This document shows, in pieces, positions 8,701 through 51,736 of a DNA stretch of 64,000 nucleotides. The position numbers and the translations under genes were made by a program. The notes beneath the pieces are model-generated. The model was not told the DNA's origin. It did not search any database and saw nothing but the letters and a program-made list of their open reading frames with translations. Source of the stretch: a virus; IMG/VR virus record IMGVR_UViG_3300029922_000039; one strand, 5' to 3'. Positions within the stretch are counted from its first letter, which is position 1, and the number at the start of each line of letters is the position of its first letter.

Positions 8701-11337
8701 CTATCTCCTTGCGATATTGTCGAAACGAGTGAGGGAACCTTCAAATGCAAGGTGAATGGTGCGAGTAGCACCATTACGGTGCTTCGCGCAAATAAGCTCT
8801 GCAATCCCCTTCAACTCGTCATTATCTCGGTCATAGTATTCTGGCCTATGGACAAAGTTGAGAACATCTGCGTCTTGTTCAATTTGCCCGCTGTTGTGAA
8901 CCACTATGCCGTTCGCTATGAAATTATTAGGACCTGGCACGATACGATCAAATACCTTAACGTCTCCTGCCGCGTCTATCCTCTTGAGCCGATCCCAAAA
9001 AATGTACGAGTTAATTAGGACAGACAACTCTGGGACCTTGATGCCACGCCTAGAGAATACAGAGAGGGCCTTGGACAAATCTACTTGGCTTATGCGCTTT
9101 CCCTGGCTCCTGTATCCCAAGTCGCCATATGACATCCCATTCGCAAGAGAAATTTCCCTCAGCTTTGAACTTACCCACACTCCCAAACGGTCTCCATGAT
9201 TGCTGCCGTGCAAACTAGGGTTCAAGCCAAGAAGAGTTCTTCCTTTTCTCCCTACCAAATTAATCTTTGACCGAAATAAATCTACCTCTTTCCCCTCTTG
9301 GATCAATACACTATAGCAAACAAAATTAGCCTTGGGACTAAGATCCCCCTCATCAATCTTTGCAAATACTCCAAGGCGGCTCAAGCACCACATAAATTGC
9401 CATGCCATTTTTTTGCTTGTGGTGCTGTACTTTACCATCGGAACAGAGGTGGTAAATACCGATCCATCTGTCTCTACTAGGCCAGCTATCATGTTGGCGA
9501 TAGACTCGTCATCGGCCTGCTCCATAAACCACTCCGGGATGCTTTTCTCGTGGGCTTTTTTACCCCACAAGTCGTGGCACATTAGCCAATTTTTTACGGG
9601 GTTTCCTTCCCTTGTCCTCTTCGATCGCGTTGTTATGTCGTACTGGAAAACCTTATCGCTTGAGTGCTTGTGATATCTAGGGATAAGACCGAATAGCCTT
9701 TCAGTGTCCTCACAGAAATCCTTGGCAACATCCGCGCAAGAACAAATGAAGGATGGGGATGAATACCCTAGCATTGATCCATTTCCGAGCATTCTCCCAA
9801 TCCACCGAGATTCCGGTATAGAAATACGCCCAGGCAGGCTGTCGATCTTTCTCGCCGCAGCAATAGCGTGATCTGGAGTTAGGTCTTTGGCCTTGACCCA
9901 GCCAACATCCGTGAGTATGGAGTGATTTGGAGTGCATACAATTTCGCGCCCCGATCTCGTCCTGACTCTAATCGCTTGCGATACCCCCTTCGGAACGTTG
10001 AAGGAAGGGACAGGTTTGATTTTTTCATTGCTTAAACTATACGTGTTCATAGGAGATTCCATATTAGATTGAACACCACCAGAAGTAAACAGAAAAGTGT
10101 CTTTTTCTGACAAGCATTCCCGCAGATCTGACAATACGGGACGCTTATCTTGGCGCTGTTCGTTATTCCTATTGAGTTGGGCAAGAGCGATCACGGGGCA
10201 ATCGAGTTCTTTTGACATTGCCTTCAGGGATCGAGACACAAGCGCCACTTCTTGTTCCCTGTTTTGGGTTTTTTTGTCTCCCGATACGAGACTGATGTAA
10301 TCGATCACCACAAGATCAAGGCGCCCCTCGCGCTGCTTTAGCCGGCGACCCTTTGCTCTCATCTGAATCGGGGTCATATTGGAGCAGTCGTCGATAAATA
10401 TGCGAGACTCCACCAAGTCATTTAGTGCCTTCTGTAGCTTTCTTTTTTCCTCCGAGCTAAGGAATTCTCCCTCCATGGCCCTCTTGATGTCCACGCGAGC
10501 CCTAGATGCCATGAACCGACGCTCCACCGAGGGCCTCGACATCTCCAAAGAAAAGAACGCTGCTACCATATCTGTTCCGCAGCATACGTTTTCGAGAATA
10601 TTCATTGAAATGCTAGTTTTTCCTTGCGCTGGCCTGGCTGCAATGATCGTCAACTCTCCCTTCTGAAGACCTCCAGTAAGCCGATCGTAATCAATAAAAC
10701 CCGTCGGAAGTCCCACCTTGAGGTTCGGTTCGGTGTACTGGCGAATATATTGATCTGGCCCTCCCGCTTGAGTTACAGAAGATCCGAAGTCTCGCAACTT
10801 GCTGGTATTCGACTCCTGGGCCACCTCCAGCAACTGCGATTCCGCGTCTTCCAGAACCGCCATCGCCGTCTCGCTCTGGTCGGCCGCGCGCGACAGCACA
10901 GAGGAGCAGATTGCCATCAGCCGGCGGAGTTGGGACTTCTCCTTGACGATGCGAATGTAGTCGGCAATCTGGGGCCGCCGCGGTAGTCCATCCGTAAGGC
11001 CGGAAATGAACGCCGCGCCACCGACTGACTCGCGCTCCTTGTGGCGGTCGAGTTCCGCGCATAGGGTCACAAGGTCTACGGCTTGCTGCGCGTCGATCAG
11101 GTCGGCCATGCGCTGAAAGATGCGCCGATGGCTGTCGAGGAAGAAGTCCTCCGGCGTCAGCGCCTCGGCAATCTCGTTGAAGCAGGCCGGGTCTAGGAGC
11201 ACAGCCCCGAGTAGGACTCGTTCTCCATCGATCGAGCACGGAGCCACTGCTTCCACCGTTTGGGGCCGTGGACGCTCCTTCTCTTCCGGGTACTCCGGTG
11301 CCTGGTCGGGGATGCGGTATTCGGAGATGTCAGACAA
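8701..11337 (-). CDS. dnaB: replicative DNA helicase DnaB, interrupted by an intein
   Basis: 878 aa with a TTG start. Walker A ARPAQGKTS, Walker B LVVIDYISL, and the conserved LSDLRE|...|SGQIEQDADV motif split by a 408-aa insertion. Confidence 0.9.
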   Translation of the reverse strand: MSDISEYRIPDQAPEYPEEKERPRPQTVEAVAPCSIDGERVLLGAVLLDPACFNEIAEALTPEDFFLDSHRRIFQRMADLIDAQQAVDLVTLCAELDRHKERESVGGAAFISGLTDGLPRRPQIADYIRIVKEKSQLRRLMAICSSVLSRAADQSETAMAVLEDAESQLLEVAQESNTSKLRDFGSSVTQAGGPDQYIRQYTEPNLKVGLPTGFIDYDRLTGGLQKGELTIIAARPAQGKTSISMNILENVCCGTDMVAAFFSLEMSRPSVERRFMASRARVDIKRAMEGEFLSSEEKRKLQKALNDLVESRIFIDDCSNMTPIQMRAKGRRLKQREGRLDLVVIDYISLVSGDKKTQNREQEVALVSRSLKAMSKELDCPVIALAQLNRNNEQRQDKRPVLSDLRECLSEKDTFLFTSGGVQSNMESPMNTYSLSNEKIKPVPSFNVPKGVSQAIRVRTRSGREIVCTPNHSILTDVGWVKAKDLTPDHAIAAARKIDSLPGRISIPESRWIGRMLGNGSMLGYSSPSFICSCADVAKDFCEDTERLFGLIPRYHKHSSDKVFQYDITTRSKRTREGNPVKNWLMCHDLWGKKAHEKSIPEWFMEQADDESIANMIAGLVETDGSVFTTSVPMVKYSTTSKKMAWQFMWCLSRLGVFAKIDEGDLSPKANFVCYSVLIQEGKEVDLFRSKINLVGRKGRTLLGLNPSLHGSNHGDRLGVWVSSKLREISLANGMSYGDLGYRSQGKRISQVDLSKALSVFSRRGIKVPELSVLINSYIFWDRLKRIDAAGDVKVFDRIVPGPNNFIANGIVVHNSGQIEQDADVLNFVHRPEYYDRDNDELKGIAELICAKHRNGATRTIHLAFEGSLTRFDNIARR
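8893..10116 (-). mobile_element. DnaB intein with LAGLIDADG homing-endonuclease domain
   Basis: Residues 408-815. It begins with Cys (CLSEKDT), ends VVHN, and has +1 Ser. Internal IGRMLGNGS and IAGLVETDGS are LAGLIDADG motifs. It is visibly more AT-rich than the exteins. Confidence 0.85.
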
Positions 11338-20943: not shown

Positions 20944-23900
20944 TTATTGCAGAACGCTCGTCATGCGATGCCTGCGCCCAGGGAAGGACGGTGCCACCTT
21001 CTTCGGCTTCAGGCCGGGAACGTAGCGGCTGATTGGAACTTCCTCGTTCACCGTCTGCTTGACGATGTTCGCACGGCGCTCTTCTGGGGTCTGCTTGTGG
21101 TGGCCAGTATCCATATAGGTAGCCCCTACCTCTCCGGCAGCCTTCACCGCATTATAAGCATCCGTAACGGCTACTCCTACGACAATCTGCACCATCGAGT
21201 TCGTTACGCGGCTCTGCTGGACCAACTTCTGCGCGTCCTTGGGGTCATGCGTGGCCAGTTCGTTGAAGAGTTGCGTCAGAGTCTCGACGCCCATACCCAT
21301 CGAAATATAGTGCAGCGCGTTGAAGAGTGCTTCCTTCGAGACGGGATGCTCTTCCAGCCACTTCTTCTTCCGGTCTTCCATGGCCGCTTCCGGAGATCCC
21401 GACATCTGGTGACGCAGGTGGAGCAGTTCCGAGAGCGCATACCCGGCCAGGCCGAAGCTCGCGCTGAACCTGCCGATCAGTTTGTACGGCTCGGCGCTCT
21501 TGTAATCGGACTTGTAGAGTTCCTGCCACACCGTCCGGTTGACGAGGTTGGCCGTCTTGAACATGAAGCCGTGAAGCGACTGCGCAATGCGCATCAGGGT
21601 CGTCAGGCGCTGGAATATCGGAGGGTCACTCAACTGATTGCGCGCGGCCATGGGGAGTTCGGAGGGCCTGCCGCTCCCGGTGGTCCAGTTTGCCGCAGCC
21701 AGTTCCATGCGGCGCACGTCCTCTGGTCCATAGCCCTTGGTCGCCATGTTGTCCATTTGCTCGTCAGTGAATCCGTAAAGGTCGGTGAGCTTGCGGCGCA
21801 GTACGGCGCTCTTGGGGTCCTTGACCAGTTCCGGGTAGGCGTACTTCTCAAACCACAGACGGCCAGCCCCGGACGCAACCACGCGGCTCCAGTTCATGAT
21901 GGCGGTGAAACCGTTGTAGTCCAGCATCTTCTGGTCCCACCCTCCGCCATTCATTCCGTATTCCCGCATCCAAGCCTGCTTGATGTAGTTGACCATGGCG
22001 CCACAGTCTACCGCGTTCTTGCGCATCTCACGCGGATTGATCGCAGAGCGAATGAACGACTCCGCCAGGCTGCGCGTGTTGGTCGCCAATACCGTCTTGG
22101 CAAGGTGAAGCGGGAGTTTGATGGGGCTCAGGTGCATCTTGCTCAGAATCAGCCAGCGGTTCGCCCAGCGCAGGGCAATGCGGTCCGAGTCATGCAGCCG
22201 GGCCGGGTCCAAGTCGGAGGTGATGATATGGTTCACCATCGAGCGGGTGCGGCTGTCCGGCAAGGCGTCGATCAGCGGGTCTGTCTTCTCGCGGAACTGT
22301 CCATGGACTTCGGCGGAGGCCAACTTCTCTGAGATTTCATTGACGTAGCGATCAAGAACCTTGCGGTCGCGGCCATACATCGGGATCTCGAACTCGCGGG
22401 CACGCTCCACGTTGCCTGCGAGGCGAATGCCGCGCGCGTTCTTGTCGAAGAACAGTTGCGCCTTGATCTTGGAAATACCCTTCTGCTCGGCCACCTTCTC
22501 GATCAGAGCTTCGCGGCGCTCATCGCCCTTGGGCATCCTCATGATGTCACCCAAAGAGGCAACTACCTTGTCGCCTTTGGCGTCCGTGATGATGAACTTC
22601 TCTTCCCAGTTGTAGATGCGCGGCCAGTAACGCGGGTCATCGGCGATCTTCGAGTATGGCACATCGCTACGCTTGCCCTTCTCGTCATAGAAAACAACGG
22701 CCATCCCGGCATCGGCCAGGCGTTTGCGCACGGTAGCCGTGAACTTACGGAATTCAGTGACGGCTTTATCGATACGCGGGTCGGTCGTTGTCTCTTGTCC
22801 CTCGACCACCTTGGAAACCGTCCTCAGATCATTCGGGGTGAGTTTGTTCTTGGAGATAATCTCCTCGACCATGCCGCCGAACTCTCCTCGGTAGTTCCCA
22901 GATCGGATGTCATAGTCGATCAGGCGGCGCTTCAGTTCCATACCCATCTTTTCGTGGCCAGCATCCCTGCAAATCTGCTCTACGGCTCGGTCACCAGACA
23001 TTCCGAACATCCAGAGGCTCGACTTGACGAGGTGCGCGGCGGAGCGACCAGTGCCCTTCATGCCGTCGAACCATAGAAGAGCGTCGTTCTCAAGGTCGCG
23101 GGTCCGGCGGTCGATGGCTTCCTTCGGATTCTCCCCGGCGGCCTTAGCGGCGCGCCCGGCGTGCTGTGCTTCAGCCTGAAACGCTCCTTGATGAGCGGCA
23201 ATGGCTTGGGACTGCTCCGCTGGCAGGCTCTTGGTACGTCCCATCATGTCTTCCCACGCAGACTGAGCGAGAGAATTCAGGTGCGCTTCGGGGTCTTCAT
23301 CCTTCGGCCCCTGATAGAGTTTCTTGCCCTGCCCCTTGTACTTCATGGGCTGGTGCATAGCCTTCTTAGCGTCGGGGATCTCGAACTCGCTGATCGGAGT
23401 GAACTTCGCCTCGTCCGTCGTGCGCTCGAAGTCTGCCGCTTCGGGGGCGTATTCGTTACCCTGGTCGTACTCAAGCATCTCTTCTGGGATGCCTGCCGCC
23501 TCGCGCAGGTTCTTCGACAACTGGGTTTCGTTGCGTTCGCCATAGACGGCCGCCTTGAGTGCCCTCATGCGCGGCAGAACCTTGGTCCCCAAGAGCTTGA
23601 TCTCCGGCAGGGCATCGGTGGTCAGGAAGATATTGGCAACTCCCGACTGGCGCCCATAGCGGTCAGTGCGGCTCGTAGCCTGCTCCAGCATGATCGAACT
23701 CCACGGCGGAGTGATGAAGATACCCATGCGCGGCTTGTTGCCCACCTTGTCGTGCGCGCTGGCGCCGACGCCGCCAGCGGCATAGGTCGCATACAGCGCA
23801 TCCTTCTCGCCGCTCTGGAAGCCTTCCAACTCTTCAGCGCGCAACTGGTTCGCGTCCCCGGCGAAGATGCCGATCTTGTCGCCGAATTGCGCGCGCATCG

Positions 23901-26900
23901 CCTTCACCATATCCGGCAATGGCGGGAGCATTGCATTGATCTGCTTGCCCAGGTCGCCCGGCAGACGGTTGATGAAGTCCATCCCTTCTTCCGCGGCAGA
24001 ACGGTACTCAGTGAAGAGAACCGGGCTCCACCCATCCTTGATCGCCTTCGCCGCCAGTTCGATCGCATGTGGCAACTTGGCCGCCTCAAGGTAGCGTTTC
24101 AGGTAGATCGCCTCGTGGCCGGCCGCAGCCTTGATCAGACTCGACATCTTGTTGCGCTGGAAGGCGGCACGCGCCATCGTGAACGCCTTGCGGATGCTGC
24201 GCACCCCGGCGCGAACCTCTTCAGTCTGCGGAACAAGTACGACGTGGGCCTCGGTGCCTTCCATGTCCTTGTGAAGTTGCTGCCACTGCCCGCGTTCGAT
24301 AAGCTGCTGCCGCAACTTCTCCAACTTGCGCGGCGCGGAACCGCCGCTGTAGCTGTTCGGACCGCTCTCCACCAGACCAAACTGGCTTGCCCATCCCGTG
24401 AACCCTCCATGCGGCCAGAGTCCCAACTTGTGCATGTAGCCGATTTCGAGAGTGGTGCTGTACGGCGTGGCGCTCGAATAGATCACCTTCTTCGCCGCGT
24501 GTCCCAGCATAATGACAGCCTTACCCTGCTCGGAATCCGTCCACTTGCGCGCCTCGGAACTCTCATCAAAGAGAACAAAGTCCCATGGAACTGACAAGAC
24601 GCTGCGGTTGCCGCGAATGCCTGCGTAGGTCGCTGCGTACATGCCGGTCTGCATCTCTTCCATATTGCTTGGGAGGTCGTTCACGTCCACGCCAAAGCGC
24701 CGGGCAACGTCTTTGAGTCCGTCTGCTTCGTGAATAAGGTTTTGGCTGCGCGTTACCCACAATCCAACCTTGTCGCCACTCGTTCCGAGAAGGTGGCTGC
24801 AAAGTGCTGATCCTAAAAAGGTTTTTCCAGTACCCGCACCGCTAGCAAGAATCGTCGCGTCGTACTGCTGCAACGCCGAAATAACGCCATCGGCAACTTC
24901 CGGCTGCCCAGGGAAGATGAGCAAGTCGCGCAGGTCGGTAGCAAGGCGCTGTGTCGGCGGCGGTGTTCCCTTCGGCAAGCCAAGGTCCTCCACATGACCA
25001 CGCCACTTGTCAGGATCGACGACCGGCGTGCCGCGTGGTCGCTCCGGCGATTGGAGCTTTGCCGCCTTTACTTTTGCGAGGGGGTCTGCTGCCGGTTTGG
25101 CAATGGCCCCTCGTCCGGAAGTTCGTGAACCGCCGGGGGCCGCATGTTCCCTGTCGGCCGATCCGGCTCCGCCATGAACTTCTCCAGCATCGCCCGGTTC
25201 TCGAACCCCAGAAGTTCCATGAGATACGCTTCTCGATCGTGCATTTTCCCCTCCCAGTGCAATCGCCGTGGGGTCGCCCATCACCTGCTGGACGGTCGCG
25301 GCCTGTGCTGGCGTGGTTGGTTCGTTCTGCGTCGGCATCTCGCTCAGTCCGTGGACGAGTTGGATGACGCTGGTATCCTTCGGTTCAGGCTTCGACCCTA
25401 TAATGCCTGTTGCGCCGCGGAGTTTGTCCTCAATGCCGTTCAATTGGCCGCGCAAGAGAGCCTGGCGGCGGGGATCTTGCTCTCGCTTCAGTTCATCCTC
25501 AAGAGACTTCGCCCGGCGGGACAGATCGACCATCTCGCTCAGGCTCGGCTGGAACAGTTTCTTGCCGCGCTTCATCTGAATGCGGAGGTAGACTTGCTGC
25601 TCACCGCGGACTTGCAGGATCTCCCATCCCTTGATGTCGGCACCACGCTCCTCGATCACGTCCAAAGCGTCGGCCATGTTCTGCTTGTGGATTACCTTCG
25701 AGTTATCTCCTGGCTTCGGGCCGGAGCGGATCACCTTGGCATCACGCGGAACCTCGACGCTGCCGGTATCCATGGCCTGCTTGCCCATCTTCTCGATCGC
25801 GTCCACGTCCAGACGGGTAGTGAGTGGTTTGCGCTCGGTGCGGGTCCAGTCGTACCAGTTGTCAAACATGGCCTTGAGTTCCGGGGACCCTTGCGCCAAC
25901 TTCTTGCCGGTGACCGCATTGTAGACCGACTGCATCGAACGCGAGAGGGTTGCGAAAACCTTCTCCAGTTTGCCGCGCCGAATGCCGCCATCGTAGTGAT
26001 ACCGCTCAAAAGCCTGGGCAAACAACTCTTCCTGTTTTTCCGTCCACTCTTCTCCTGGCTTTGCGCCGACAAAAGCATTGGCCACGCTCTGATCTGCCGG
26101 GCTGAGGTATTGGCGAACATAATGCGCCATCTCATGAATGAAGGTGGAAGTATCGGCAGTGTCGCAAAGGCGAATAATCGCCCGCCCATCTTCCAAAATC
26201 TGCGTGTAGCCGCGCTGGCCGCCCTTCTCCTTGCCGCCGAAAGCGATAGTGAGACGCCGATTGCCTAGCAACTCTTCGAGCTTCATCCCAAGAGCCTGCG
26301 GCAAGATATGCTCCATCATGTCGCCGACCGCCGCCGCTTCTTCGGGGGAGAGGTTCGGGTGACTCTCCAGCGCACGGCGCAGGTCCTGCACGGTGCGCGG
26401 TCCCTCTGGCAATGCCACTTCCACGCTGGACGAATCCGGCGCGGTGTCGGCTATCACGGTCTCATGTGAGACTGGAACCTCAACCGGCAACTCGCCGCGC
26501 GCGTCCTCAATAACAGTCTTCATGGCGTCGGACAGGCCAGCAACAGAACCCCACTCTTCGGGGATAACGTTCAACCCGTACTTCGAAGCGATCTCGTCGG
26601 TGAATACGTCTGCCGGGTGCTCCGCGCCAAACATCGAAGCCTGGACGCCAGTAGCGCGGTCGGCGTATTTCGCCAGCATCTCGGTGTACTTGGCCGGCGA
26701 CTCTTCGAGCGCCATGGCAAGCGCCTCAACTCCGGCATGAACTGGCTTGTGGAGCGACTGGCCATCGAAGTCTGTGATATCCAAGTCACCTTGGACTCCA
26801 GTATCCTTCTTCCCTTGGTATCGCTCCGGGTGCAGGCCCTTCTCGATCAGCGAATCCCTGCCGGAGCCCTTTGAGACTTCTCCCGGCTTGCCCTGCAAAT

Positions 26901-29900
26901 GATGCAACGATGCCGCGGCGTCTTCCAGTCGGGTCAACATGCGCACTGCGTCGGAGTTCATCGACGCCAGATTCCAGTTCTCCCCGGCGTTCCGCATCTT
27001 GACGAAGAAGATTCCGGCGCGCGTCAGGCTGTTCTTCGTGGACGGGCTGATCCCTTCGAGTGAGGTGGGGTCGCTGACTGTGAGGCCGACCAGCATGTTC
27101 TCGAAAAGGCTCTTGGCCTTATCCGTCAGATCGCCCTTGTCGTCTCCTGTCTGGATCACGTACTCGGCCAATTGGTTCGGCGCAATGATGCCGGAATCCA
27201 CCATCAACTGAGCGATATCGGCGGAGCGCGCGCGCATCGCCTGCCGCGCTGTGAGTGTGCGGGTCTTGCCTGTCTTCTTGTCTACTTCGGTGCTGGGCAT
27301 TGAGCTGACGATGTTATCCAGGCGGTCGAGGTAGTCCGTCGTGAGCAGCCGCGACATAGCCGCGCCCATTTCCACTTCATTGATTCCGTAGGCAGGGGGG
27401 CGGTTGAGGTCCAGACCAAGCATCGACCACTGGTGTTCGTCTACCGGCGCATCGATGCGCTTCATCAGGATAGGGTTCCGGTACTTTTCAATCTCGGCTG
27501 GGTCGATCCCGAGCGACTGCGCGCGGCGCAACAGTTCATCGCGGTAGCGCGCGTATTCCTTGGGGTTCTTGATGAGAGCGGTCAGGATCGAGAGCGTGCG
27601 CCCGTTGCCGGAAATGACGTGGCCGCTCTGGTCGATGATGCCAGGACCCTCCATTGTCGTCACGCCATTGCTGAGAACCTGGTCGAGATCGAGATTGGAG
27701 ACACGTTCCTCCACGCCAGTCTGAGCCTGCTTATCGCTCTTGTAATCGCGCGGTTGCCCATTCTGGTTGTATCCATCCCGGTACTCATAGGTCATCGGCA
27801 TGTGCGAAGTCTGCGCGTCTGTGGCCTCCATCACAACATAGTGTGACGGGATACCTTCCCTGTTCTGAGGCGACACAACACGGGTAGCGCCGCCGATCGA
27901 CATTGGGTACGCCGGGGTGGCCGCTGGTGGAGGGGGTGGCGGATTGATAACCGACTGAGCGCCAGCCACCACTGCATCCGCCTTCTTTTGTGATTCATCT
28001 GCTGCTGCTTGAGCAGCTTCGGCTTGCGCCGTGTTTCCCCCAGCCCTTAAATTCTCTGCCGCGTTTTGCAGGTCGTGCGCCTGATCGGTAAACTCGATCA
28101 CCTGCTTTGCGGCTTTCTCGCGCGCTCCCTCGATATCCACATGGAAGGACGCGGCGGTGTCGTCGGCAATCTTCCGGGCAACATGCTCAGATGCGGCGGC
28201 GCGGACACGCTGCATCCGTCCAATAAAATCCCGCATCTTCGGCGTGCGAAGATCGTTGCGTGTGTCCTTTACGGTCTTCTCGATTTTGAACAGGTCGTCC
28301 ATGCTGTCAACGGGACCAAGGCCCAGGTCGCGGGCATCCTGAGTCAAGCCGGCGGTGGCCTCGACAATCGGGCGAAGGTTCTGCGGACCCTCCGGCGACT
28401 GCGCCTCAGTCATCAAGCCTGTCAGTTCTGCCCTGTGCTTCGCTGCGGCGTCAGCCGCCATATTGGTAGCCAGATCAGTTTCCATGTCCCGCTGGATCTG
28501 GTCGCGGTACTCCATCAGCATCTGGGCTTGCTGCCGGCTCCGCAACTGGTCCTCGATGTTTGCGAGGTCGATGTGCTGTCCAGAGGCAATGCGCTCCGAA
28601 AGGTCTGGAGTCAGGAATGCCTTCAACTTCTCCGGTTTGGCGCGTAGGTAGTCGGCCAGCACCGCGCTGCGGTCTTCTGGCGCCAGCGAGTCCCATGACT
28701 TGCCCATGGACTTCTCGGTGTGTTCGTTCAGATCGCGGTGCGTGGCCGGGTCTGCCTGGAGAGCGGAGTCCATGTTTGTCCGAGCAATGATGAGCTTGGC
28801 CAGGCCAGAGTGGAAGTCCGCGCCGGGCGCCAATGGCTGCTCATTGCCGGTAGAGTGCCGTTCCAGATAACGCTTCGACGCTGCATCGACCATCGCTGCA
28901 TCTCGCACGCGGTCGGCATGATCCTGATAGGCGGGGGTATCGCGGAACGCCTGCCATGCTTCGGGATGGAACCGCTCAAGCCAGCGCGCGGCGACGGTCT
29001 GCCGGGAGAGGGGAAGCATCGAGAACGAGGTCTTGAATCGATCTTCTGTGAGTTCCTGAACCTTGGACTCGGCGGCGGCAACTTCCGGGGCTGGGGCAGG
29101 CAATGGCTCCCCGGCGGCAGTGCGGCGCTCGACTACGGGAATGGCGGTTGACTCTGCCGTCTCTGGCTCATACCGCTGGCCGGGTTCGCGCTCGGTGGTC
29201 TGCTTGAGACCGCGTGTAGTCTGTCCCGACCGACCCTCTTCAACGGGAACTGCCGGAGCCTCTACCGCGGCTTGTTTGGCGGCCTCGGCGCGGTCCTTCT
29301 CGCCCTGTACCTTGGAGGCAGTCACCTTGTCTTCGGCGGCCTTCCGAGCGGCAGACTCGCGCTGCATGGCTTCGTGCTGTGCGGCGGCGCGGCGCGCCTT
29401 GGCGACAAGGGTTTTCCGAACAAGAGCCTTTGCTGCTTCAAGGCGTTCCGCGGTGACGCGAGTCCCGAGTCCAGCATCTACTGGTGATTCATCTGGGGAT
29501 ATTTCTATCCCTCCGGCGGTATTCTTCTTTACCTTCTCGCCTAGCGGAGACTTGCCATACTTGGCCCTGATACGCTTGACTTCCGCATCCACCTTCTTCT
29601 TGAATTCAGGATCGGCATCTTCCATCGACCGATACAGAACATCTGCCTTCTGCTCATCGGTCAACTTTACGAACGGCTTCTTGTAGAGGTCTTCCGAAGG
29701 CTTATTGAAGTCCCAGGTGCGAACGCGGTCCTTGACGGCTTCCGACCCGGCGTGCCCGTAGTGCATCCCTACAACGACAAGAGCGTTGCCGAACAGATCG
29801 CCCCACTTCTCCGCAGAGTCACCTTCTCCTGTTGCCGAAGACGCCGACGCATCGGCCACGCCAGAAACACCACTAGAGATCAACTGCCCCTGATACGACA

Positions 29901-30663
29901 TGCCAACCGCCTTGCCGATTTGGCCCGGCATGAGGGGTATCGTGGCGAGGGTGTACAGGTTCTCAATGCTTGTCTGGTTCTCGATGGCCTTGACTGCGTG
30001 AGTGGCGAAACGAGATCCCCAGTTCTTGCTATTCGGATCAAATAGCGACTGGAAAGCCTTCGTTCCGGTTACGTTCAAGCGCGCCTTGCCTGCCGACTCT
30101 ATCGTTTCGAGGGCCTGCTTGGCGTACTTGTCACCCTTGGCGGCCTGCTCCTGAGTGGCCTGCATCACCACATCTTGAACTTCTTTGTCTGCCGGATTCG
30201 GAACTCCAGAAGTTGCCGTGCCGCCGCCGAACAGCAATCCCCCCATGAACCCAGGGAATGACTTGACGATATCTTTGGCGTCCTTCCAGTTGGGCTTAGG
30301 AGCGTTTGCCTTCGCGTTCTCCCACCACGACGGTTCGTGTACGGTCGATGGGGCCGCGTGAAAGTCGTCGATCCACTTCTGCGCGTCATCCTTGTTGGCG
30401 AAGTCCATGCCAGACCCGCGCACCTTACTGAACGGGACATGATAGGTCTTGTCGCCACGGCGCATGGCGTAGGTGCCTTCGCCTTGTCCGGTGCTGGGGT
30501 CGATGGGGTTGTCTTCGACGGTAGAGAGATGATCGACAGGAGGAGTGGGAGCTTCGGCCGGCTTCGTATCGACAACTGCCCAAGGGTCGCTCGGCGGCTG
30601 CTTAGTGGCAGTCGGCGGAGGTGCTGGCGTCGTGCTGACAACTGCCCATGGATCCTGAGCCAT
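20944..30663 (-). CDS. giant polyvalent protein (ParB-like + zincin metallopeptidase-like + strawberry-notch/SNF2-like helicase modules), probable internal/ejected virion protein
   Basis: 3239 aa. Motifs: GHVISGNGRT (aa 1014-23); HEMAH (aa 1510-14) plus EELFAQAFERY; GAGTGKT (aa 1942-48); FDESS; YSSATP..LGLWPHGGF; QATSRTDRYGRQ. TAATG-coupled to the upstream 794-aa gene. Confidence 0.75.
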   Translation of the reverse strand: MAQDPWAVVSTTPAPPPTATKQPPSDPWAVVDTKPAEAPTPPVDHLSTVEDNPIDPSTGQGEGTYAMRRGDKTYHVPFSKVRGSGMDFANKDDAQKWIDDFHAAPSTVHEPSWWENAKANAPKPNWKDAKDIVKSFPGFMGGLLFGGGTATSGVPNPADKEVQDVVMQATQEQAAKGDKYAKQALETIESAGKARLNVTGTKAFQSLFDPNSKNWGSRFATHAVKAIENQTSIENLYTLATIPLMPGQIGKAVGMSYQGQLISSGVSGVADASASSATGEGDSAEKWGDLFGNALVVVGMHYGHAGSEAVKDRVRTWDFNKPSEDLYKKPFVKLTDEQKADVLYRSMEDADPEFKKKVDAEVKRIRAKYGKSPLGEKVKKNTAGGIEISPDESPVDAGLGTRVTAERLEAAKALVRKTLVAKARRAAAQHEAMQRESAARKAAEDKVTASKVQGEKDRAEAAKQAAVEAPAVPVEEGRSGQTTRGLKQTTEREPGQRYEPETAESTAIPVVERRTAAGEPLPAPAPEVAAAESKVQELTEDRFKTSFSMLPLSRQTVAARWLERFHPEAWQAFRDTPAYQDHADRVRDAAMVDAASKRYLERHSTGNEQPLAPGADFHSGLAKLIIARTNMDSALQADPATHRDLNEHTEKSMGKSWDSLAPEDRSAVLADYLRAKPEKLKAFLTPDLSERIASGQHIDLANIEDQLRSRQQAQMLMEYRDQIQRDMETDLATNMAADAAAKHRAELTGLMTEAQSPEGPQNLRPIVEATAGLTQDARDLGLGPVDSMDDLFKIEKTVKDTRNDLRTPKMRDFIGRMQRVRAAASEHVARKIADDTAASFHVDIEGAREKAAKQVIEFTDQAHDLQNAAENLRAGGNTAQAEAAQAAADESQKKADAVVAGAQSVINPPPPPPAATPAYPMSIGGATRVVSPQNREGIPSHYVVMEATDAQTSHMPMTYEYRDGYNQNGQPRDYKSDKQAQTGVEERVSNLDLDQVLSNGVTTMEGPGIIDQSGHVISGNGRTLSILTALIKNPKEYARYRDELLRRAQSLGIDPAEIEKYRNPILMKRIDAPVDEHQWSMLGLDLNRPPAYGINEVEMGAAMSRLLTTDYLDRLDNIVSSMPSTEVDKKTGKTRTLTARQAMRARSADIAQLMVDSGIIAPNQLAEYVIQTGDDKGDLTDKAKSLFENMLVGLTVSDPTSLEGISPSTKNSLTRAGIFFVKMRNAGENWNLASMNSDAVRMLTRLEDAAASLHHLQGKPGEVSKGSGRDSLIEKGLHPERYQGKKDTGVQGDLDITDFDGQSLHKPVHAGVEALAMALEESPAKYTEMLAKYADRATGVQASMFGAEHPADVFTDEIASKYGLNVIPEEWGSVAGLSDAMKTVIEDARGELPVEVPVSHETVIADTAPDSSSVEVALPEGPRTVQDLRRALESHPNLSPEEAAAVGDMMEHILPQALGMKLEELLGNRRLTIAFGGKEKGGQRGYTQILEDGRAIIRLCDTADTSTFIHEMAHYVRQYLSPADQSVANAFVGAKPGEEWTEKQEELFAQAFERYHYDGGIRRGKLEKVFATLSRSMQSVYNAVTGKKLAQGSPELKAMFDNWYDWTRTERKPLTTRLDVDAIEKMGKQAMDTGSVEVPRDAKVIRSGPKPGDNSKVIHKQNMADALDVIEERGADIKGWEILQVRGEQQVYLRIQMKRGKKLFQPSLSEMVDLSRRAKSLEDELKREQDPRRQALLRGQLNGIEDKLRGATGIIGSKPEPKDTSVIQLVHGLSEMPTQNEPTTPAQAATVQQVMGDPTAIALGGENARSRSVSHGTSGVREPGDAGEVHGGAGSADREHAAPGGSRTSGRGAIAKPAADPLAKVKAAKLQSPERPRGTPVVDPDKWRGHVEDLGLPKGTPPPTQRLATDLRDLLIFPGQPEVADGVISALQQYDATILASGAGTGKTFLGSALCSHLLGTSGDKVGLWVTRSQNLIHEADGLKDVARRFGVDVNDLPSNMEEMQTGMYAATYAGIRGNRSVLSVPWDFVLFDESSEARKWTDSEQGKAVIMLGHAAKKVIYSSATPYSTTLEIGYMHKLGLWPHGGFTGWASQFGLVESGPNSYSGGSAPRKLEKLRQQLIERGQWQQLHKDMEGTEAHVVLVPQTEEVRAGVRSIRKAFTMARAAFQRNKMSSLIKAAAGHEAIYLKRYLEAAKLPHAIELAAKAIKDGWSPVLFTEYRSAAEEGMDFINRLPGDLGKQINAMLPPLPDMVKAMRAQFGDKIGIFAGDANQLRAEELEGFQSGEKDALYATYAAGGVGASAHDKVGNKPRMGIFITPPWSSIMLEQATSRTDRYGRQSGVANIFLTTDALPEIKLLGTKVLPRMRALKAAVYGERNETQLSKNLREAAGIPEEMLEYDQGNEYAPEAADFERTTDEAKFTPISEFEIPDAKKAMHQPMKYKGQGKKLYQGPKDEDPEAHLNSLAQSAWEDMMGRTKSLPAEQSQAIAAHQGAFQAEAQHAGRAAKAAGENPKEAIDRRTRDLENDALLWFDGMKGTGRSAAHLVKSSLWMFGMSGDRAVEQICRDAGHEKMGMELKRRLIDYDIRSGNYRGEFGGMVEEIISKNKLTPNDLRTVSKVVEGQETTTDPRIDKAVTEFRKFTATVRKRLADAGMAVVFYDEKGKRSDVPYSKIADDPRYWPRIYNWEEKFIITDAKGDKVVASLGDIMRMPKGDERREALIEKVAEQKGISKIKAQLFFDKNARGIRLAGNVERAREFEIPMYGRDRKVLDRYVNEISEKLASAEVHGQFREKTDPLIDALPDSRTRSMVNHIITSDLDPARLHDSDRIALRWANRWLILSKMHLSPIKLPLHLAKTVLATNTRSLAESFIRSAINPREMRKNAVDCGAMVNYIKQAWMREYGMNGGGWDQKMLDYNGFTAIMNWSRVVASGAGRLWFEKYAYPELVKDPKSAVLRRKLTDLYGFTDEQMDNMATKGYGPEDVRRMELAAANWTTGSGRPSELPMAARNQLSDPPIFQRLTTLMRIAQSLHGFMFKTANLVNRTVWQELYKSDYKSAEPYKLIGRFSASFGLAGYALSELLHLRHQMSGSPEAAMEDRKKKWLEEHPVSKEALFNALHYISMGMGVETLTQLFNELATHDPKDAQKLVQQSRVTNSMVQIVVGVAVTDAYNAVKAAGEVGATYMDTGHHKQTPEERRANIVKQTVNEEVPISRYVPGLKPKKVAPSFPGRRHRMTSVLQ

Positions 30664-33047
30664 TACCTTTCAGCCTTTCCGGTTTTCAAATAGTCCTGCA
30701 TCTTTTTCAAGAGTCCGATCTGTTTTGGAGAATACATTGTATTTCCAGAATCCGCTTGGCCTTTCTTGCCATCCCCTTCATTCGTTATCCACCCTCTGAT
30801 ATATGCGTCATAGGTTGGACCGTTCCGGTCTTTGGAGCCGTTCACATCGTCCCACCATGTATCGTGTCGCTCCTGTCGTTTAAGTTCCTGAGGGGTAAAA
30901 TTCTGCATGAATTCGTTGCGTAAACGACTCCAATATGGATCGCTTCCCATGCCGTGCATCAAATCGCCATAAATGGCCTGCTTTAAGAGCGATGGGTTGG
31001 ATTTTAGTTTGTCGTCATAGATTTCAAGGACATTCTTACCCGGTATAGGCGAAGGGAAATCCTTCATGCCCGCTTCGGTTGGCGACCAAAACTCTAGCCC
31101 ACCTCTTTCTTTAAGGCCGCGTTCGGCGCGCTTTCCAGTGGCGAATACAACAGACGTGTTACCTGCGTTGAAATTTTTGGCAAGTCCAGGGTATTCCTGA
31201 AGCACTTCATGTAAAACAGGGTTTATAGCTTGTTTACTCTCATGGCTAGGGAACCTCCTTCGGTCTGTTTCCTGCCTCTCCGGGCCGACCTGCACGGGTT
31301 TTCCATTCCGTAATGTCCATTGCTGCCCATTAGCAAAGGTCGTTATATTGCCATCGCGGAGATGTTTAACCGCCTCAGGAGGCAAAGCACCCGCACCCCC
31401 CGGAGACGAGGCCGGGGGAGCAGGCGTTGCGGCTGCCTGTGGCGATACAGGCGCAGTGCCGCTTCCCGTTGGGGCTGCCGGTCCAAACAGAGGGGCCATA
31501 CGGCTTGCTGCCGCGCGCCTCGATTCCGGTGTCAGCGCCGTTTCTTTCGGACCACTTACCACGGCCCTGATTTGAGTCTGAAGATCGCGCTCTAGGTTCT
31601 TGAGTTGGTCTTCCGTCACACCCCCAGAATATTTTCCATGGCTGTCTGGCTTCCCGACTTGCCCGCGATTGTGATACTGATACCCGTTATCGCCCTGGCC
31701 AACGATATTCGCCAGCGCATCGTCTAGGGTGGGCATCGTCTTGTACTGCGGCAATCCCCGCAGACGGTCGATCGCCGCCGTCAGAACGTCGTTGTCGAAC
31801 TGCTTTGGATCAGAGACGGCATTGTGGGCAATGACCCCGGCCTGCTGCTGCCCGGCGCCCTCCACCTTGCGATGAGCCAACGACTCGCGCTCGTCCTCCG
31901 GCATGTCTGGGTATTCTTCTTTGTAATAGGCAAGAGCCTTCTGATACGAACCCTCCATGCCTTTGCCGCCACCAGCGCCCGTGCCTGCCTTCGGAGGCGC
32001 ACCCAAACGATGGCCGCGCGCGGTCTCTTCAGCCGTCCACTGCTCGAATGATCCCTTGTATCCACCCTTGACGGCCGTATCGTAGTCAGTACGCTTTTCT
32101 TCCGTTGGCGTAGGTGCTTTCTGCGCAGGCTGCCAACCTTCCGGCTCATTGCCGGGAGTGTAGTATTCCTGGCTTTTGCTGTCTGGCGACTGGTAGAGAT
32201 GAGCCGCCCCTGTACCGCGCCGCTGCGATTCGTCCATAATCCGACGCGCAGAATTGTATTGGTCGACAACTTCTTTCTGCGCCGGAGTCCTGTTCGCTTC
32301 CGGGATCTTCTCGTATTCCGAAGCCTGCCCGCCCAACTTGTATACCGTGCCCTGAGCATCGGTTACGGCCTTCTTGACGGAAATTTCTGCGGATTCAAGA
32401 TCTGCGCCGGCTACTTGGTTCTGCGTTCCCTGCTGCTGCGCCTTGCGCCTCTGTTGCGCCTCTGGAGTATTCAGCATGGCGATCTGTCCGTATACCGGAG
32501 GGCCAGCCTGCTTGGCTACCTGATACCACGCCTGAGCCTTCTCGTAGGGCGTCGAGTTCGGGTTCGTCAGAACCGCCTGCGGAGGAAGTTGGGGCTGATT
32601 CTTCTTCCCCTTGCCCTTCTTCTCGCCGTTCATCTGCTCGATATGCTGGCCGTAGAAGTCTTGCAGAGCCCCCCACGATCCATCCACAGAGGACTTGGCT
32701 GCTTTGTACGAATCCGAGCCGGGGTCCACCCCGGCCTGCGTCAACTGGTAAAGCCGCACCGCATCCTGGTTGTAGGAGTTCTGGAGGTCGTCCGACTTCT
32801 TTTTGAGCTTCATCACCTGCGCCGCCTGGTGATAGGCCCGGCCCTGCATGAAGCCGCGGAGAATGCCATCGGCGACCGTAGCGATCGCTCCCGACTTCTT
32901 CACCGCACCATTGATCTCTGGACCCTGCTGCGGGAGTGGAGACGGCATCGCCTGGACAGGTTCTGGCATGACCGGGGCCTGATACGGTGCCGGGTTCGAC
33001 GGGTCGTATGCTTGGAACTTTCCGGGATTTTCTTGCCCTGTAGCCAT
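30663..33047 (-). CDS. probable internal virion protein (794 aa)
   Basis: Track ORF. P/Q/A-rich and low in complexity, with a globular C-terminal ~200 aa. Call rests on its position between the 186-aa and 3239-aa genes. Confidence 0.5.
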   Translation of the reverse strand: MATGQENPGKFQAYDPSNPAPYQAPVMPEPVQAMPSPLPQQGPEINGAVKKSGAIATVADGILRGFMQGRAYHQAAQVMKLKKKSDDLQNSYNQDAVRLYQLTQAGVDPGSDSYKAAKSSVDGSWGALQDFYGQHIEQMNGEKKGKGKKNQPQLPPQAVLTNPNSTPYEKAQAWYQVAKQAGPPVYGQIAMLNTPEAQQRRKAQQQGTQNQVAGADLESAEISVKKAVTDAQGTVYKLGGQASEYEKIPEANRTPAQKEVVDQYNSARRIMDESQRRGTGAAHLYQSPDSKSQEYYTPGNEPEGWQPAQKAPTPTEEKRTDYDTAVKGGYKGSFEQWTAEETARGHRLGAPPKAGTGAGGGKGMEGSYQKALAYYKEEYPDMPEDERESLAHRKVEGAGQQQAGVIAHNAVSDPKQFDNDVLTAAIDRLRGLPQYKTMPTLDDALANIVGQGDNGYQYHNRGQVGKPDSHGKYSGGVTEDQLKNLERDLQTQIRAVVSGPKETALTPESRRAAASRMAPLFGPAAPTGSGTAPVSPQAAATPAPPASSPGGAGALPPEAVKHLRDGNITTFANGQQWTLRNGKPVQVGPERQETDRRRFPSHESKQAINPVLHEVLQEYPGLAKNFNAGNTSVVFATGKRAERGLKERGGLEFWSPTEAGMKDFPSPIPGKNVLEIYDDKLKSNPSLLKQAIYGDLMHGMGSDPYWSRLRNEFMQNFTPQELKRQERHDTWWDDVNGSKDRNGPTYDAYIRGWITNEGDGKKGQADSGNTMYSPKQIGLLKKMQDYLKTGKAER

Positions 33048-33180: not shown

Positions 33181-33741
33181 TCAAGCAAACGCTGCTCCCA
33201 CGGTAGCAGCATCGCTACCGAGAGAGGTCAGCGCACCCAACTGAGCACCTTTCTGTTGGATTTGCTGGCTCCCTAGTTGCCCGAGTCCCTGATTCGCAGA
33301 GTTATACCCAGAAATGGCCGTACTGGCAGATGAGATTGATTCACCTGTTCCTTGACCGGCGAGTTGGGCGAGAGCATTGTAGCTGCCCGTTACTGCGCCA
33401 GACGTGATATCCCCGATTTTCGCCCCTTGCGCCACGTCCGCCTGCTCCAGAGCGAGATTCTTCTCGCCTCCAGACGGCGCAGTATTCATGATGTTCTGCT
33501 TGGCGCCAGCCGTGGCTGCTGAAATCTGCTGCGCCTGCGGGGCAACGGCACGAGCGATAGCATACGGGTCGCCCGAAGCAAGCGTTTGATACTGATTCTC
33601 GGCAGCGACGAAGCCAGGGTTTGACTCATTGAAGAGGGTGTTTGCGTTTTGATTTTGTTGCTGCGCAATGGCTACAAGGGCGCTACTATTGTCGGCCTCT
33701 TGTTGCTGCACGCTGCTGGACAAACCGCTGGATTTTCCCAC
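33181..33741 (-). CDS. probable internal virion protein (186 aa, Q/A/G/S-rich)
   Basis: Track ORF with a GTG start. Low-complexity composition. Confidence 0.5.
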   Translation of the reverse strand: MGKSSGLSSSVQQQEADNSSALVAIAQQQNQNANTLFNESNPGFVAAENQYQTLASGDPYAIARAVAPQAQQISAATAGAKQNIMNTAPSGGEKNLALEQADVAQGAKIGDITSGAVTGSYNALAQLAGQGTGESISSASTAISGYNSANQGLGQLGSQQIQQKGAQLGALTSLGSDAATVGAAFA

Positions 33742-33808: not shown

Positions 33809-34615
33809 TTACAACCAAGAAAGAGGGAGTTCCGGCTGCGGCTTGTCCTTGGCTTCTTCTTCGGTGCGCGCCTTTGCAGCGGCCCAGTCGATCTCGGCCA
33901 TCTTCTTGGCCCATAAGTCGTCGTCGATCGCCTCGGTAGGCACTTCCGGCTCCACCTCGACAGGCTCCGCGTTCTCCCTGCGCCACTGCTCCAGGAGGAA
34001 GTCCTCGACGCACTTCTCGAAGTCCTCGCGAGTCAAGATGGAGACCACCATCGACACGAGCTTCGATCCACGCAACTGAAAGCGGGGAATCTCACCACAG
34101 TCCTTGAAGCCAAAGCGCCCCATGTACTTCGCGGTGAGCGTGTTGTCGGCGTATCGATTACCGATGATGGCCTGAAGGTCGAACTCTTTGATCAGGTAGG
34201 CCAGCCCGAGCATGGTCACGATCTTCTGTTCTTCTGATCCCCAGTATTCGCGGAAAAACCCATACCCAGCGATCATAGAACGCTCGGTGTTCGCAGTGCC
34301 CACGGTCACCGTATTGAAGGCGAACCCCATCTCGACGAAGTTGTCACCCTCCCACTTGCCGAGAATGAGCAGAACGGCCCGGCTGGCGAGGTAGGTGATG
34401 ATCGAGTTGAAGTCGGAGGCGGGATTCCCGCCGAATGTTGCGGTCAGAATCCCATCTCCGGAGCGGCGCTTCGATTCCCGGCAGCGGCGGTACAAGGTCG
34501 CCAAATAGTCGTCGGGAAACAGTTCTGTGCGCGTCTTGTCGTAGCGCACTACGGCGAGGTCGCCCATGCGGTAACCGTCTTCTCGAAGCGCCGCCAGTAC
34601 GTCTACTTCGCTCAT
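33809..34615 (-). CDS. GNAT-like acetyltransferase-fold protein in the virion module
   Basis: 268 aa. GNRYADNTLTAKYMGRFGFKDCGEIP resembles the GNAT motif-A/B region. Acidic C-terminal tail. Confidence 0.45.
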   Translation of the reverse strand: MSEVDVLAALREDGYRMGDLAVVRYDKTRTELFPDDYLATLYRRCRESKRRSGDGILTATFGGNPASDFNSIITYLASRAVLLILGKWEGDNFVEMGFAFNTVTVGTANTERSMIAGYGFFREYWGSEEQKIVTMLGLAYLIKEFDLQAIIGNRYADNTLTAKYMGRFGFKDCGEIPRFQLRGSKLVSMVVSILTREDFEKCVEDFLLEQWRRENAEPVEVEPEVPTEAIDDDLWAKKMAEIDWAAAKARTEEEAKDKPQPELPLSWL

Positions 34616-51710: not shown

Positions 51711-51736
51711 CACTGGCCTCCGTTAATTTGAAATTC

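Follow-up and report, generated by a model that had tools for sequence, protein, structure and literature searches.

Two established concepts bear on the gene described here, the enzyme cargo borne by the internal virion protein termed D (IVP-D) and the polyvalent proteins. Homologues of IVP-D host domains destined for the host cytoplasm, such as the N4 vRNAP and gp60 of phage H66, and not every one of them has a lytic transglycosylase domain (Hardies et al., 2016, PMC4819975). Polyvalent proteins have been defined and fusions of an MPTase, an SNF2 ATPase and a ParB domain listed among them; proteins with a DdrB-ParB domain adjoin virion genes, and self-processing by the MPTase has been proposed (Iyer et al., 2017, PMC5512222). 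The gene of interest lies at positions 20944-30663, on the minus strand, of a 64,000-nucleotide stretch of viral DNA (IMG/VR record IMGVR_UViG_3300029922_000039; "the window" below means this whole stretch), and encodes 3239 amino acids (aa), referred to here as the giant protein. With moderate confidence, it is considered to encode the internal virion protein D, an ejection protein of the T7 gp16 class, in a novel podovirus-like phage that has not been cultivated. In this reading, which is held as a whole and to the same moderate degree, the C-terminal ~790 aa would constitute an alpha-helical ejection or core module (C), and the N-terminal ~2450 aa would be its cargo, comprising the modules N1, N2, ddrB-type ParB, M, an HExxH module (Z) and an ATPase (H) of the strawberry-notch (Sno)/SNF2 type.

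The gene is a single unbroken open reading frame (ORF) with an ATG start and its stop codon at 20944-20946, as seen in the ORF listing and the translation. A preliminary description of the window had reported one uninterrupted 9.7-kb frame of 3239 aa, and the same coordinates were recovered. Seven full-length homologues of 3161-3517 aa (49-67% identity) were found on metagenome contigs of 84-92 kb; there are remoter multi-domain proteins as well, and a JGI metagenome holds an identical 1239-aa fragment. In the alignment of the giant protein with its full-length homologues (A1, eight sequences), conservation peaks in the ATPase region (67-80% identity) and is lowest in the N-terminal 200 aa and in the linkers. 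The invariant residues include G1019, N1020 and R1022 of the ParB domain, R1022 being the arginine of the ParB/Srx pocket; E1511, H1514 and E1546 of the HExxH module; and G1944/G1946/K1947, D2033/E2034 and Q2328/R2332/R2335 of the ATPase. Because of the full-length homologues and the invariant catalytic residues, the gene is regarded as more than a product of chance. The eight motifs that the preliminary description had picked out were all found in the translation where it had placed them, all on the minus strand: GHVISGNGRT (aa 1014-1023), HEMAH (aa 1510-1514, nucleotides 26122-26136), EELFAQAFERY (aa 1545-1555, nucleotides 25999-26031), the Walker A motif GAGTGKT (aa 1942-1948, nucleotides 24820-24840), FDESS (aa 2032-2036), YSSATP (aa 2062-2067), LGLWPHGGF (aa 2080-2088) and motif VI, QATSRTDRYGRQ (aa 2328-2339).

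The kinship with internal virion proteins resides in module C (aa 2455-3239; 20947-23301, minus strand), an all-alpha, IVP-D or T7 gp16-like segment. About 700 residues at this end had been set down as resembling nothing recognisable; they now appear as a widespread module of ~790 aa that is like internal virion proteins both in its predicted fold and through a chain of profiles. An alignment of aa 2440-3239 with homologues including P0008 (A2) was searched exhaustively against cluster representatives; 528 of them were retrieved at E<=1e-3, of which 170 passed E<=1e-10 and 69 passed E<=1e-30. The module forms the C-terminus of every mapped giant (2000-5700 aa) and also occurs in the C-terminal half of many proteins of 900-1450 aa. 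When its AlphaFold2 (AF2) model was compared with BFVD by Foldseek, 56 matches were obtained at E<=1e-3 (probability 1.0, template modelling score ~0.4-0.48, E 1e-9 to 5e-4). They include 'Internal protein D' of Bordetella phage BB8, 'Internal virion protein C' of Aeromonas phage PS, a 'Putative internal (Core) protein' of 1337 aa from Pseudomonas phage PAO1_Ab05, a 'Putative internal virion protein' of LKA1, a 'Phage internal virion protein' of Xylella phage Cota and a 'Structural protein' of KPP25, along with an SLT-domain protein and C-terminal pieces of proteins named for polyvalent-protein domains.

The chain of profiles runs through 40 shorter relatives of module C (alignment A4). The A2 and A4 alignments match each other in hhalign with E 3e-51 over 564 columns, and five of the 40 shorter relatives match phrog_342, 'internal virion protein with endolysin domain', which is also the product name in the record of T7 gp16. 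Against T7 gp16 alone, A4 reaches a probability of 59% and E 9e-5, at gp16 aa ~740-1130; against the C-halves of seven T7-like gp16 proteins (A5), it reaches 89% and E 2.4e-6 over 324 columns that include a common QFKSF region. Some family members show the gp16 layout itself, an SLT domain and the C module with the enzyme block between them, since P0008 has an N-terminal SLT domain (Pfam E 2.3e-9) and the N-terminus of P0038 matches the SLT domain of T7 gp16 (phmmer E 1.2e-7). The proposed homology of module C to the internal virion proteins of podoviruses, and to T7 gp16 (IVP-D) in particular, is supported by these profile and model comparisons.

The place of the gene had already suggested an ejected or internal protein, and this assignment is now backed by the homology of module C as well as by position. 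As described earlier, the gene is the last and largest of a 268/186/794/3239-aa series that follows the tail genes, and this order is kept in three related contigs, those of P0001, P0002 and P0008, where the gene order around the giant gene is conserved. It is thus the final gene of the structural operon, on the same strand as the 268-, 186- and 794-aa ORFs and the larger, tail-size ORFs of 1354, 170, 385 and 948 aa upstream of them. The reported overlap of its start with the stop of the 794-aa gene is confirmed by the junction sequence, GGTAATGGCT, in which the TAA and the ATG share one base (TAATG); an AAAGG stands just upstream of the ATG.

Within the cargo, two enzymatic identities are given by Pfam. 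The ddrB-type ParB/sulfiredoxin domain (aa 935-1070; 27454-27861, minus strand), which holds GHVISGNGRT, matches PF18763 over profile positions 3-120 of 121, with E 7.6e-15 and 55.6 bits on the whole protein (cut-off 27.6) and E 4.6e-16 and 59.5 bits on a tile; the ParB/sulfiredoxin-like loop first read by eye is borne out by this full-length match. Two PHROGs families of unknown function (5143 and 2299) match the same stretch, and these are the only PHROGs matches of the giant protein. Module H (aa 1900-2440; 23344-24966, minus strand) is an SNF2/strawberry-notch-type ATPase of superfamily 2 (SF2), with GAGTGKT, DESS, SATP and motif VI. AAA_34 (PF13872, the Sno N-lobe) matches aa 1938-2086, though marginally: the score is 28.8 bits when the whole protein is searched and 33.4 bits for a tile (cut-off 27), and the corresponding ATPase of P0008 matches ResIII, DEAD and SNF2-rel in place of AAA_34. 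Helicase_C_4 (PF13871) gives no match at E<=10 in the tile of aa 1880-2460, and motif VI is present and conserved. Hence, the strawberry-notch-type helicase proposed earlier stands for its N-lobe and not for a Helicase_C_4 match. The tile-wise Pfam search then suggested as a check (nine tiles, E<=10) recovered ddrB-ParB and AAA_34, but, like the search of the whole protein, not MPTase-PolyVal, Helicase_C_4 or any LPD family. Upstream of the ATPase, module L (aa 1710-1900; 24964-25536, minus strand) is a conserved lead-in rich in Gly, Ala and Pro, with no Pfam match.

Module Z (aa 1440-1640; 25744-26346, minus strand) contains HEMAH followed by EELFAQAFERY, and its assignment draws on the conservation of these motifs. 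The HExxH motif and the downstream glutamate (E1546/E1547) are kept in P0008 (HEWAH) and P0011 (HEVGH) at only 22-27% identity. In the full-length homologue P0007 (51% identity), EEVAH replaces HEMAH, and the linker motifs described below have changed from KKL[FY]Q[GP] into TTLYQL and KTLYQM, possibly a sign of relaxed constraint following the loss of the first zinc ligand. Weak Pfam matches appear among the ten members of the Z-module alignment (A3), namely ATLF in two of them (best E 0.049), and Reprolysin_3 (E 0.088) and Reprolysin_2 (E 0.14) in one each. A comparison of Z with the MPTase region of N4 vRNAP by hhalign aligned the strand-plus-HExxH stretch with E 0.007 and a probability of 5%, and a search of the PDB with the Z profile gave no match. 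Homologues of Z co-occur with the polyvalent-protein domains PF18798 and PF18812. A metallopeptidase-like HExxH module is a reasonable reading of these patterns. Between Z and the first linker motif, aa 1641-1700 (module X; window 25564-25743) are modelled as a small alpha/beta domain of four strands and one helix with a predicted local distance difference test (pLDDT) score of 85-90; in the PDB it finds only ferredoxin-like folds, below significance.

The remaining modules have no Pfam match. Module M (aa 1100-1400; 26464-27366, minus strand) is conserved and always follows ParB in relatives. The ~900 N-terminal residues had been described as coiled-coil or low-complexity, which is too simple, since aa 200-350 and 500-930 are conserved at 50-60% identity: module N1 (aa 1-350; 29614-30663, minus strand) has a conserved core at aa 200-350 that includes GDLFGNALVVVGMHYG, and the module as a whole recurs in the distant giants P0020, P0021, P0023, P0028, P0029, P0031, P0035 and P0045, and module N2 (aa 500-930; 27874-29166, minus strand) is an alanine-rich stretch delimited by the conservation profile. 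An RNA polymerase or a methyltransferase concealed in the unassigned regions was ruled out by motifs and profiles. RNA polymerase searches of the giant protein in Pfam, PHROGs and NCBIfam gave no match, a motif scan found neither DxDxD nor a second HExxH, and the statement that no methyltransferase motif is present holds, there being no [DNS]PP[YFW] in the protein and no match to a methyltransferase family. Transmembrane anchoring was likewise ruled out by a Kyte-Doolittle scan, in which no window of 19 residues reaches 1.5 in the giant protein or its neighbours. The whole-family profile found no match in a PDB sequence search. The earlier view of a polyvalent multi-enzyme protein is sustained by the presence of the ddrB-type ParB domain, the Sno/SNF2-type ATPase and the HExxH module in one product of a structural operon.

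The architecture of the family was mapped with local hidden Markov models of nine modules, built from A1 and run against 165 fetched proteins. The order ParB, M, HExxH (Z), optionally L, ATPase (H) and C holds in ~40 giants belonging to several deep clades. Variation centres on the N-terminus, which may carry SLT, N1/N2 or other segments, and on the interval between H and C, where cassettes of up to ~340 aa are inserted (P0023). The cassette of P0014 between the ATPase and C is an ART-PolyVal domain (E 3e-16). Those of P0020 and P0023 are 2H phosphoesterases (2_5_RNA_ligase2, E 2e-11 and 2e-9), and the 2H cassette scores 26.7 bits against the Pfam family of the anti-CBASS protein Acb1, just under its cut-off of 27. 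P0023 has an additional insert of 122 aa with a ParB-like DGTHR motif, and the inserts of P0001 and P0003 (189 and 93 aa) have no Pfam match. The ART and 2H cassettes show that, in relatives, the same vehicle apparently also carries cargo of the counter-defence type.

A short motif, L-[FY]-Q, occurs only twice in the giant protein, once before and once after the ATPase. Linker motif 1, G-K-K-L-F-Q (aa 1700-1705; 25549-25566, minus strand), follows Z and X and precedes the ATPase; in its context, KRGKKLFQ/PSLSE (aa 1698-1710), G1700, L1703 and Q1705 are invariant within a stretch of 33% identity. Linker motif 2, G-K-K-L-Y-Q (aa 2446-2451; 23311-23328, minus strand), lies between the ATPase and C, only 10-15 residues past the ATPase, in the context KGQGKKLYQ/GPKDEDP (aa 2443-2458), with G2446, L2449 and Q2451 invariant in a stretch that is again poorly conserved. 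Both are candidate processing sites, and the pLDDT of the AF2 models is low at both and below 50 at motif 2, so that they are presumably disordered. Across the family, there are 33 instances of the motif 170-208 aa before the ATPase (143 in P0048) and 50 instances between the ATPase and C, the first copy standing 9-16 aa past the ATPase (38 and 45 in P0045). The family consensus is [KG]-x-[GP]-[KRS]-[KTVR]-L-[FY]-Q-[GPEDS], after which acidic or proline residues come. Each inserted cassette is bounded by an extra copy of the motif (P0001, P0003, P0014, P0020 and P0023). Among the 42 giants with sufficient upstream sequence, a set that includes close relatives, the motif is present at these positions in 35 of the 37 that have a Z module or HExxH and in none of the five that lack it (Fisher p 2.5e-5, uncorrected for phylogeny). 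A neighbour-joining tree built on the ATPase places the five giants without HExxH in at least two separate groups. N4 vRNAP contains two L-[FY]-Q, neither in an obvious linker, which suggests that the motif is not a general feature of polyvalent proteins.

This pattern leads to a tentative proposal, to which we give less credence than to the IVP-D assignment. The family might consist of self-processing injected polyproteins, in which the HExxH module would cleave its own protein at L-[FY]-Q, detachable enzymes would be delivered by the IVP-D anchor, and new cassettes (ART, 2H/Acb1-like, a second ParB) could be plugged in with one more copy of the motif; as a further layer, the ATPase, released or still tethered, might serve as a genome-internalising motor. 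If this were true, L-[FY]-Q would be the first defined cleavage code for the MPTase self-processing hypothesised by Iyer et al. A prohead protease was considered as an alternative cutter and none was found among the structural-module ORFs scanned, some small ORFs not being part of that scan.

Beyond the domain identities, we infer packaging, ejection, cleavage at L-[FY]-Q by the HExxH module, action of the ParB domain and the ATPase on DNA, and the molecular targets, which would fit together as follows. Along with the 186-aa and 794-aa proteins, the giant protein would be assembled into the core that sits above the portal in the capsid and, at infection, would be threaded through the tail ahead of or with the DNA. 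Module C would contribute to a trans-envelope conduit, so that the enzyme modules could reach the cytoplasm at the entering end of the DNA. There the ParB-like domain and the ATPase, which is of the double-stranded DNA translocase type, would act on DNA and might either protect or clear the incoming genome or help to draw it in. The HExxH module probably cuts the polyprotein into functional segments at the L-[FY]-Q linkers flanking the ATPase. Protection of the DNA as it enters, ATP-driven internalisation, or both, are readings that do not exclude one another.

Several results weigh against this scheme. With regard to module C, the AF2 model is of moderate confidence (pLDDT 64.8, predicted template modelling score 0.56, nearly all alpha-helical), and its Foldseek comparison with the PDB, which holds T7 gp15/gp16 structures, returned only insignificant matches to helical membrane proteins. 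Direct hhalign of A2 against gp16 stays below significance (E 0.17 for the single sequence, 0.029 for the alignment), so the link is transitive and requires A4 as intermediate. The giant protein has no SLT or lysozyme match in Pfam, either as a whole or in tiles, and the neighbours of 186 and 794 aa match no family. With regard to module Z, the MPTase-PolyVal zincin announced in the preliminary description found no support in that form: PF18818 has no match on the whole protein, on the nine tiles at E<=10 or in the ten members of A3; the model of aa 1400-1710 (pLDDT 73.5) has helices before and around HEMAH where a zincin would have beta-sheet; and Foldseek of this model against the PDB yields no zincin (best E 0.054). 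As for cleavage, P0007, with its EEVAH, retains both L-Y-Q sites, and the fixed spacing of the motifs to the ATPase could mark structural module edges rather than cleavage sites. Moreover, N4 vRNAP has an MPTase and is nevertheless packaged unprocessed (Iyer et al., 2017, PMC5512222).

The same modules have other possible uses, and the one proposed in the preliminary description, a packaged anti-restriction or anti-defence effector like DarB/DdrB, is possible but rather doubtful. In it, the ParB, protease and helicase modules would neutralise restriction or other host defences directed at the incoming DNA, and the protein would be dispensable on defence-free hosts. The ddrB-ParB domain is indeed of the P1 DdrB type, the polyvalent-protein framework applies, and relatives insert counter-defence-type cassettes (ART-PolyVal, 2H phosphoesterase) at the same spot; yet the giant protein has neither an ART nor a 2H/Acb1-like cassette, nor a methyltransferase. 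The ParB-M-HExxH-ATPase-C order is, besides, invariant in very divergent relatives, unlike that of shuffled arms-race polyvalent proteins, and module C is homologous to an essential ejection protein, so that this part should not be dispensable. The fixed core of ParB, HExxH, ATPase and IVP-D is no less suited to a core function in infection than to an accessory one in anti-defence, and it is from the invariant core architecture, together with the conservation maximum in the ATPase, that a core role is argued.

A further possible use is that of a genome-internalisation motor, in which an SNF2/Sno-type translocase tethered to the IVP-D channel at the cytoplasmic face would reel the genome in by ATP, with L-[FY]-Q as hinge or docking elements. 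It would do the job that falls to transcription or to an 'enzyme-like' mechanism of gp15/gp16 in T7, and to vRNAP in N4, where that polymerase has a role in early DNA entry and transcription. The ATPase stands always directly upstream of C in ~40 diverse giants and is their best-conserved part, which suits a core function more than one in an arms race; a methylase partner such as antirestriction dyads of the DarB type have is absent; SNF2 ATPases move along duplex DNA and do not unwind it (Iyer et al., 2017, PMC5512222); and the IVP-D of N4 bears an enzyme (Hardies et al., 2016, PMC4819975) on which the early entry and transcription of N4 DNA depend. Such a motor is nonetheless unlikely, the argument for it being purely inferential: the cassettes of up to ~340 aa that can separate the ATPase from C, as in P0023, indicate that tight mechanical coupling is not required, and the co-occurrence of the motif with HExxH is better explained by cleavage. 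Least of all would one expect a non-virion protein, such as a cytoplasmic helicase-nuclease associated with replication, recombination or transcription at the boundary between structural and replication genes. Its DNA-directed enzymatic domains and the adjoining RecT, exonuclease and DnaB module would suit that role, but the gene has the orientation of the structural operon and is translationally coupled to it (TAATG), module C matches internal virion proteins (KPP25 and other BFVD matches being named structural proteins), and the SLT domains found in P0008 and P0038 are meaningful only if the protein traverses the cell wall. Such a protein is accordingly judged very improbable, and the IVP-D reading is the one retained below.

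The upstream partners of the giant gene, all on the minus strand, were compared with the contig of homologue P0002 (L004), where they have counterparts. The 794-aa gene (30663-33047), whose product is rich in P, Q, A and G, shares 34% identity with a 583-aa gene at the same position in L004, and it is IVP-C-like in position and size only. Its product carries one R-L-Y-Q at aa ~98-101 (window 32756 region; DAVRLYQLTQAG), which could be chance (~0.04 occurrences expected per 800 aa) or a further recognition site. The 186-aa gene (33181-33741; product rich in Q, A, G and S) is 60% identical to a syntenic 192-aa gene and is IVP-B-like, again by position and size only, T7 gp14 having 196 aa in its record. 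The 268-aa gene (33809-34615), the first of the series, shares 52% identity with a syntenic gene of 236 aa. The 794-, 186-, 268-, 1354-, 170-, 385- and 948-aa proteins have no match in PHROGs or Pfam, nor do the giant protein and its three upstream neighbours in NCBIfam. Further away, also on the minus strand, are the large terminase (TerL; 56873-59011, family search), an SU10-type portal (53313-55106; PF23899, E 2.9e-11) and the major head protein (50733-51713; phrog_9953, E 1.9e-26).

The replication module starts downstream of the giant gene with genes for RecT, an exonuclease, a pyrophosphatase and a DnaB-like helicase. The DnaB-like ORF (8701-11337, 878 aa) differs from its 481-aa homologue in L004 by an insertion of ~360 aa (aa 453-812; window 8905-9981, minus strand), which starts with Cys (RE|CLS), ends with VVHN|S and includes a LAGLIDADG-like IAGLVETDGS; these features make an intein that carries a homing endonuclease very probable. 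Beside the DnaB gene of L004, positions 27239-28277 encode a Thg1-like protein (PF04446) and an acyl-carrier-type PP-binding protein (PF00550), and the PP-binding gene is also present in the contig of P0001.

Among 50,697 GenBank phage records, the closest matches reach ~27% identity at most for TerL, and those of the portal 23-25%. Megablast of the giant gene against GenBank phages finds none, and tblastn of aa 888-3239 gives one weak match there, a Rhodobacteraceae phage 'methyltransferase', over the M/Z region. In the same kind of search, the H and C region of the distant member P0069 has no match, and P0112 has one marginal match. By these comparisons, the window is a phage without close cultured relatives; because the related metagenome contigs span 84-92 kb, it probably represents ~70% of a genome of ~88 kb.

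For the family as a whole, BLAST against GenBank phages yields nothing beyond two marginal local matches (23-25% identity), and at least 528 clusters at 50% identity would now gain an annotation as an IVP-D ejection module with ParB, an HExxH module and a Sno/SNF2 ATPase. A full-text search of the literature retrieved no paper that joins polyvalent proteins with internal virion proteins, or with ejection proteins and a helicase. The terms 'internal virion' and 'ejection' are absent from the text of Iyer et al. (2017, PMC5512222), where 'cleavage site' occurs only in the title of a reference; that work therefore describes no IVP anchor and no conserved linker motifs. In the literature searched, both the fixed architecture and the linker motif thus appear undescribed, and they join the work of Hardies on IVP-D as a host of other domains with the polyvalent proteins of Aravind in one widespread architecture. 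The coupling of L-[FY]-Q with HExxH makes the conjecture of polyvalent self-cleavage directly testable, and, if the ATPase were to drive DNA entry, it would represent a new solution to genome internalisation in podoviruses.

In comparison with T7 gp16 and other IVP-D proteins, the giant gene occupies the same place, the last large gene of the internal-protein series after the tail genes; its all-alpha C module chains to gp16 by profiles, and P0008 and P0038 keep the N-terminal SLT of the gp16 type. However, the giant protein is 2.5 times longer than gp16, has no SLT and carries ~2450 aa of enzymatic and unassigned modules upstream of the IVP-D module, and its sequence similarity is detectable only via intermediates. 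P1 DarB/DdrB share with it a ParB domain of the DdrB type, as well as an SF2 helicase borne by a protein that should accompany the DNA, and for DdrB cleavage by its own MPTase has been suggested (Iyer et al., 2017, PMC5512222). The giant protein, in contrast, has no methyltransferase and no sequence match to P1 in any search, and P1 is a myovirus that packages the Dar proteins in its head without an IVP-D module. The cargo also separates it from N4 gp50 (vRNAP) and gp60 of Pseudomonas phage H66, consisting of ParB and a Sno/SNF2 ATPase rather than an RNA polymerase or an S-adenosylmethionine-binding domain, and the C-terminus of N4 gp50 shows no similarity to module C by hhalign. The likeness is nevertheless in the plan: all three are giants of more than 3000 aa in which an IVP-D-type C-terminal module is joined to intracellular enzyme cargo, and N4 gp50 has, like the giant protein, an HExxH located upstream of its C-terminal domain; in the giant protein, the pattern around it, G-[YW]-T...D..I.L...T.IHExxH, resembles the N4 MPTase region, though not significantly. 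From the polyvalent proteins of Iyer et al. (2017), the giant protein differs in matching no MPTase-PolyVal or LPD model of Pfam and in an architecture that is fixed and not shuffled; it resembles them in joining several unrelated enzyme domains in one polypeptide beside virion genes, in combining the hub domains DdrB-ParB and SNF2-clade ATPase with an HExxH module, and in having relatives that add ART-PolyVal and 2H domains.

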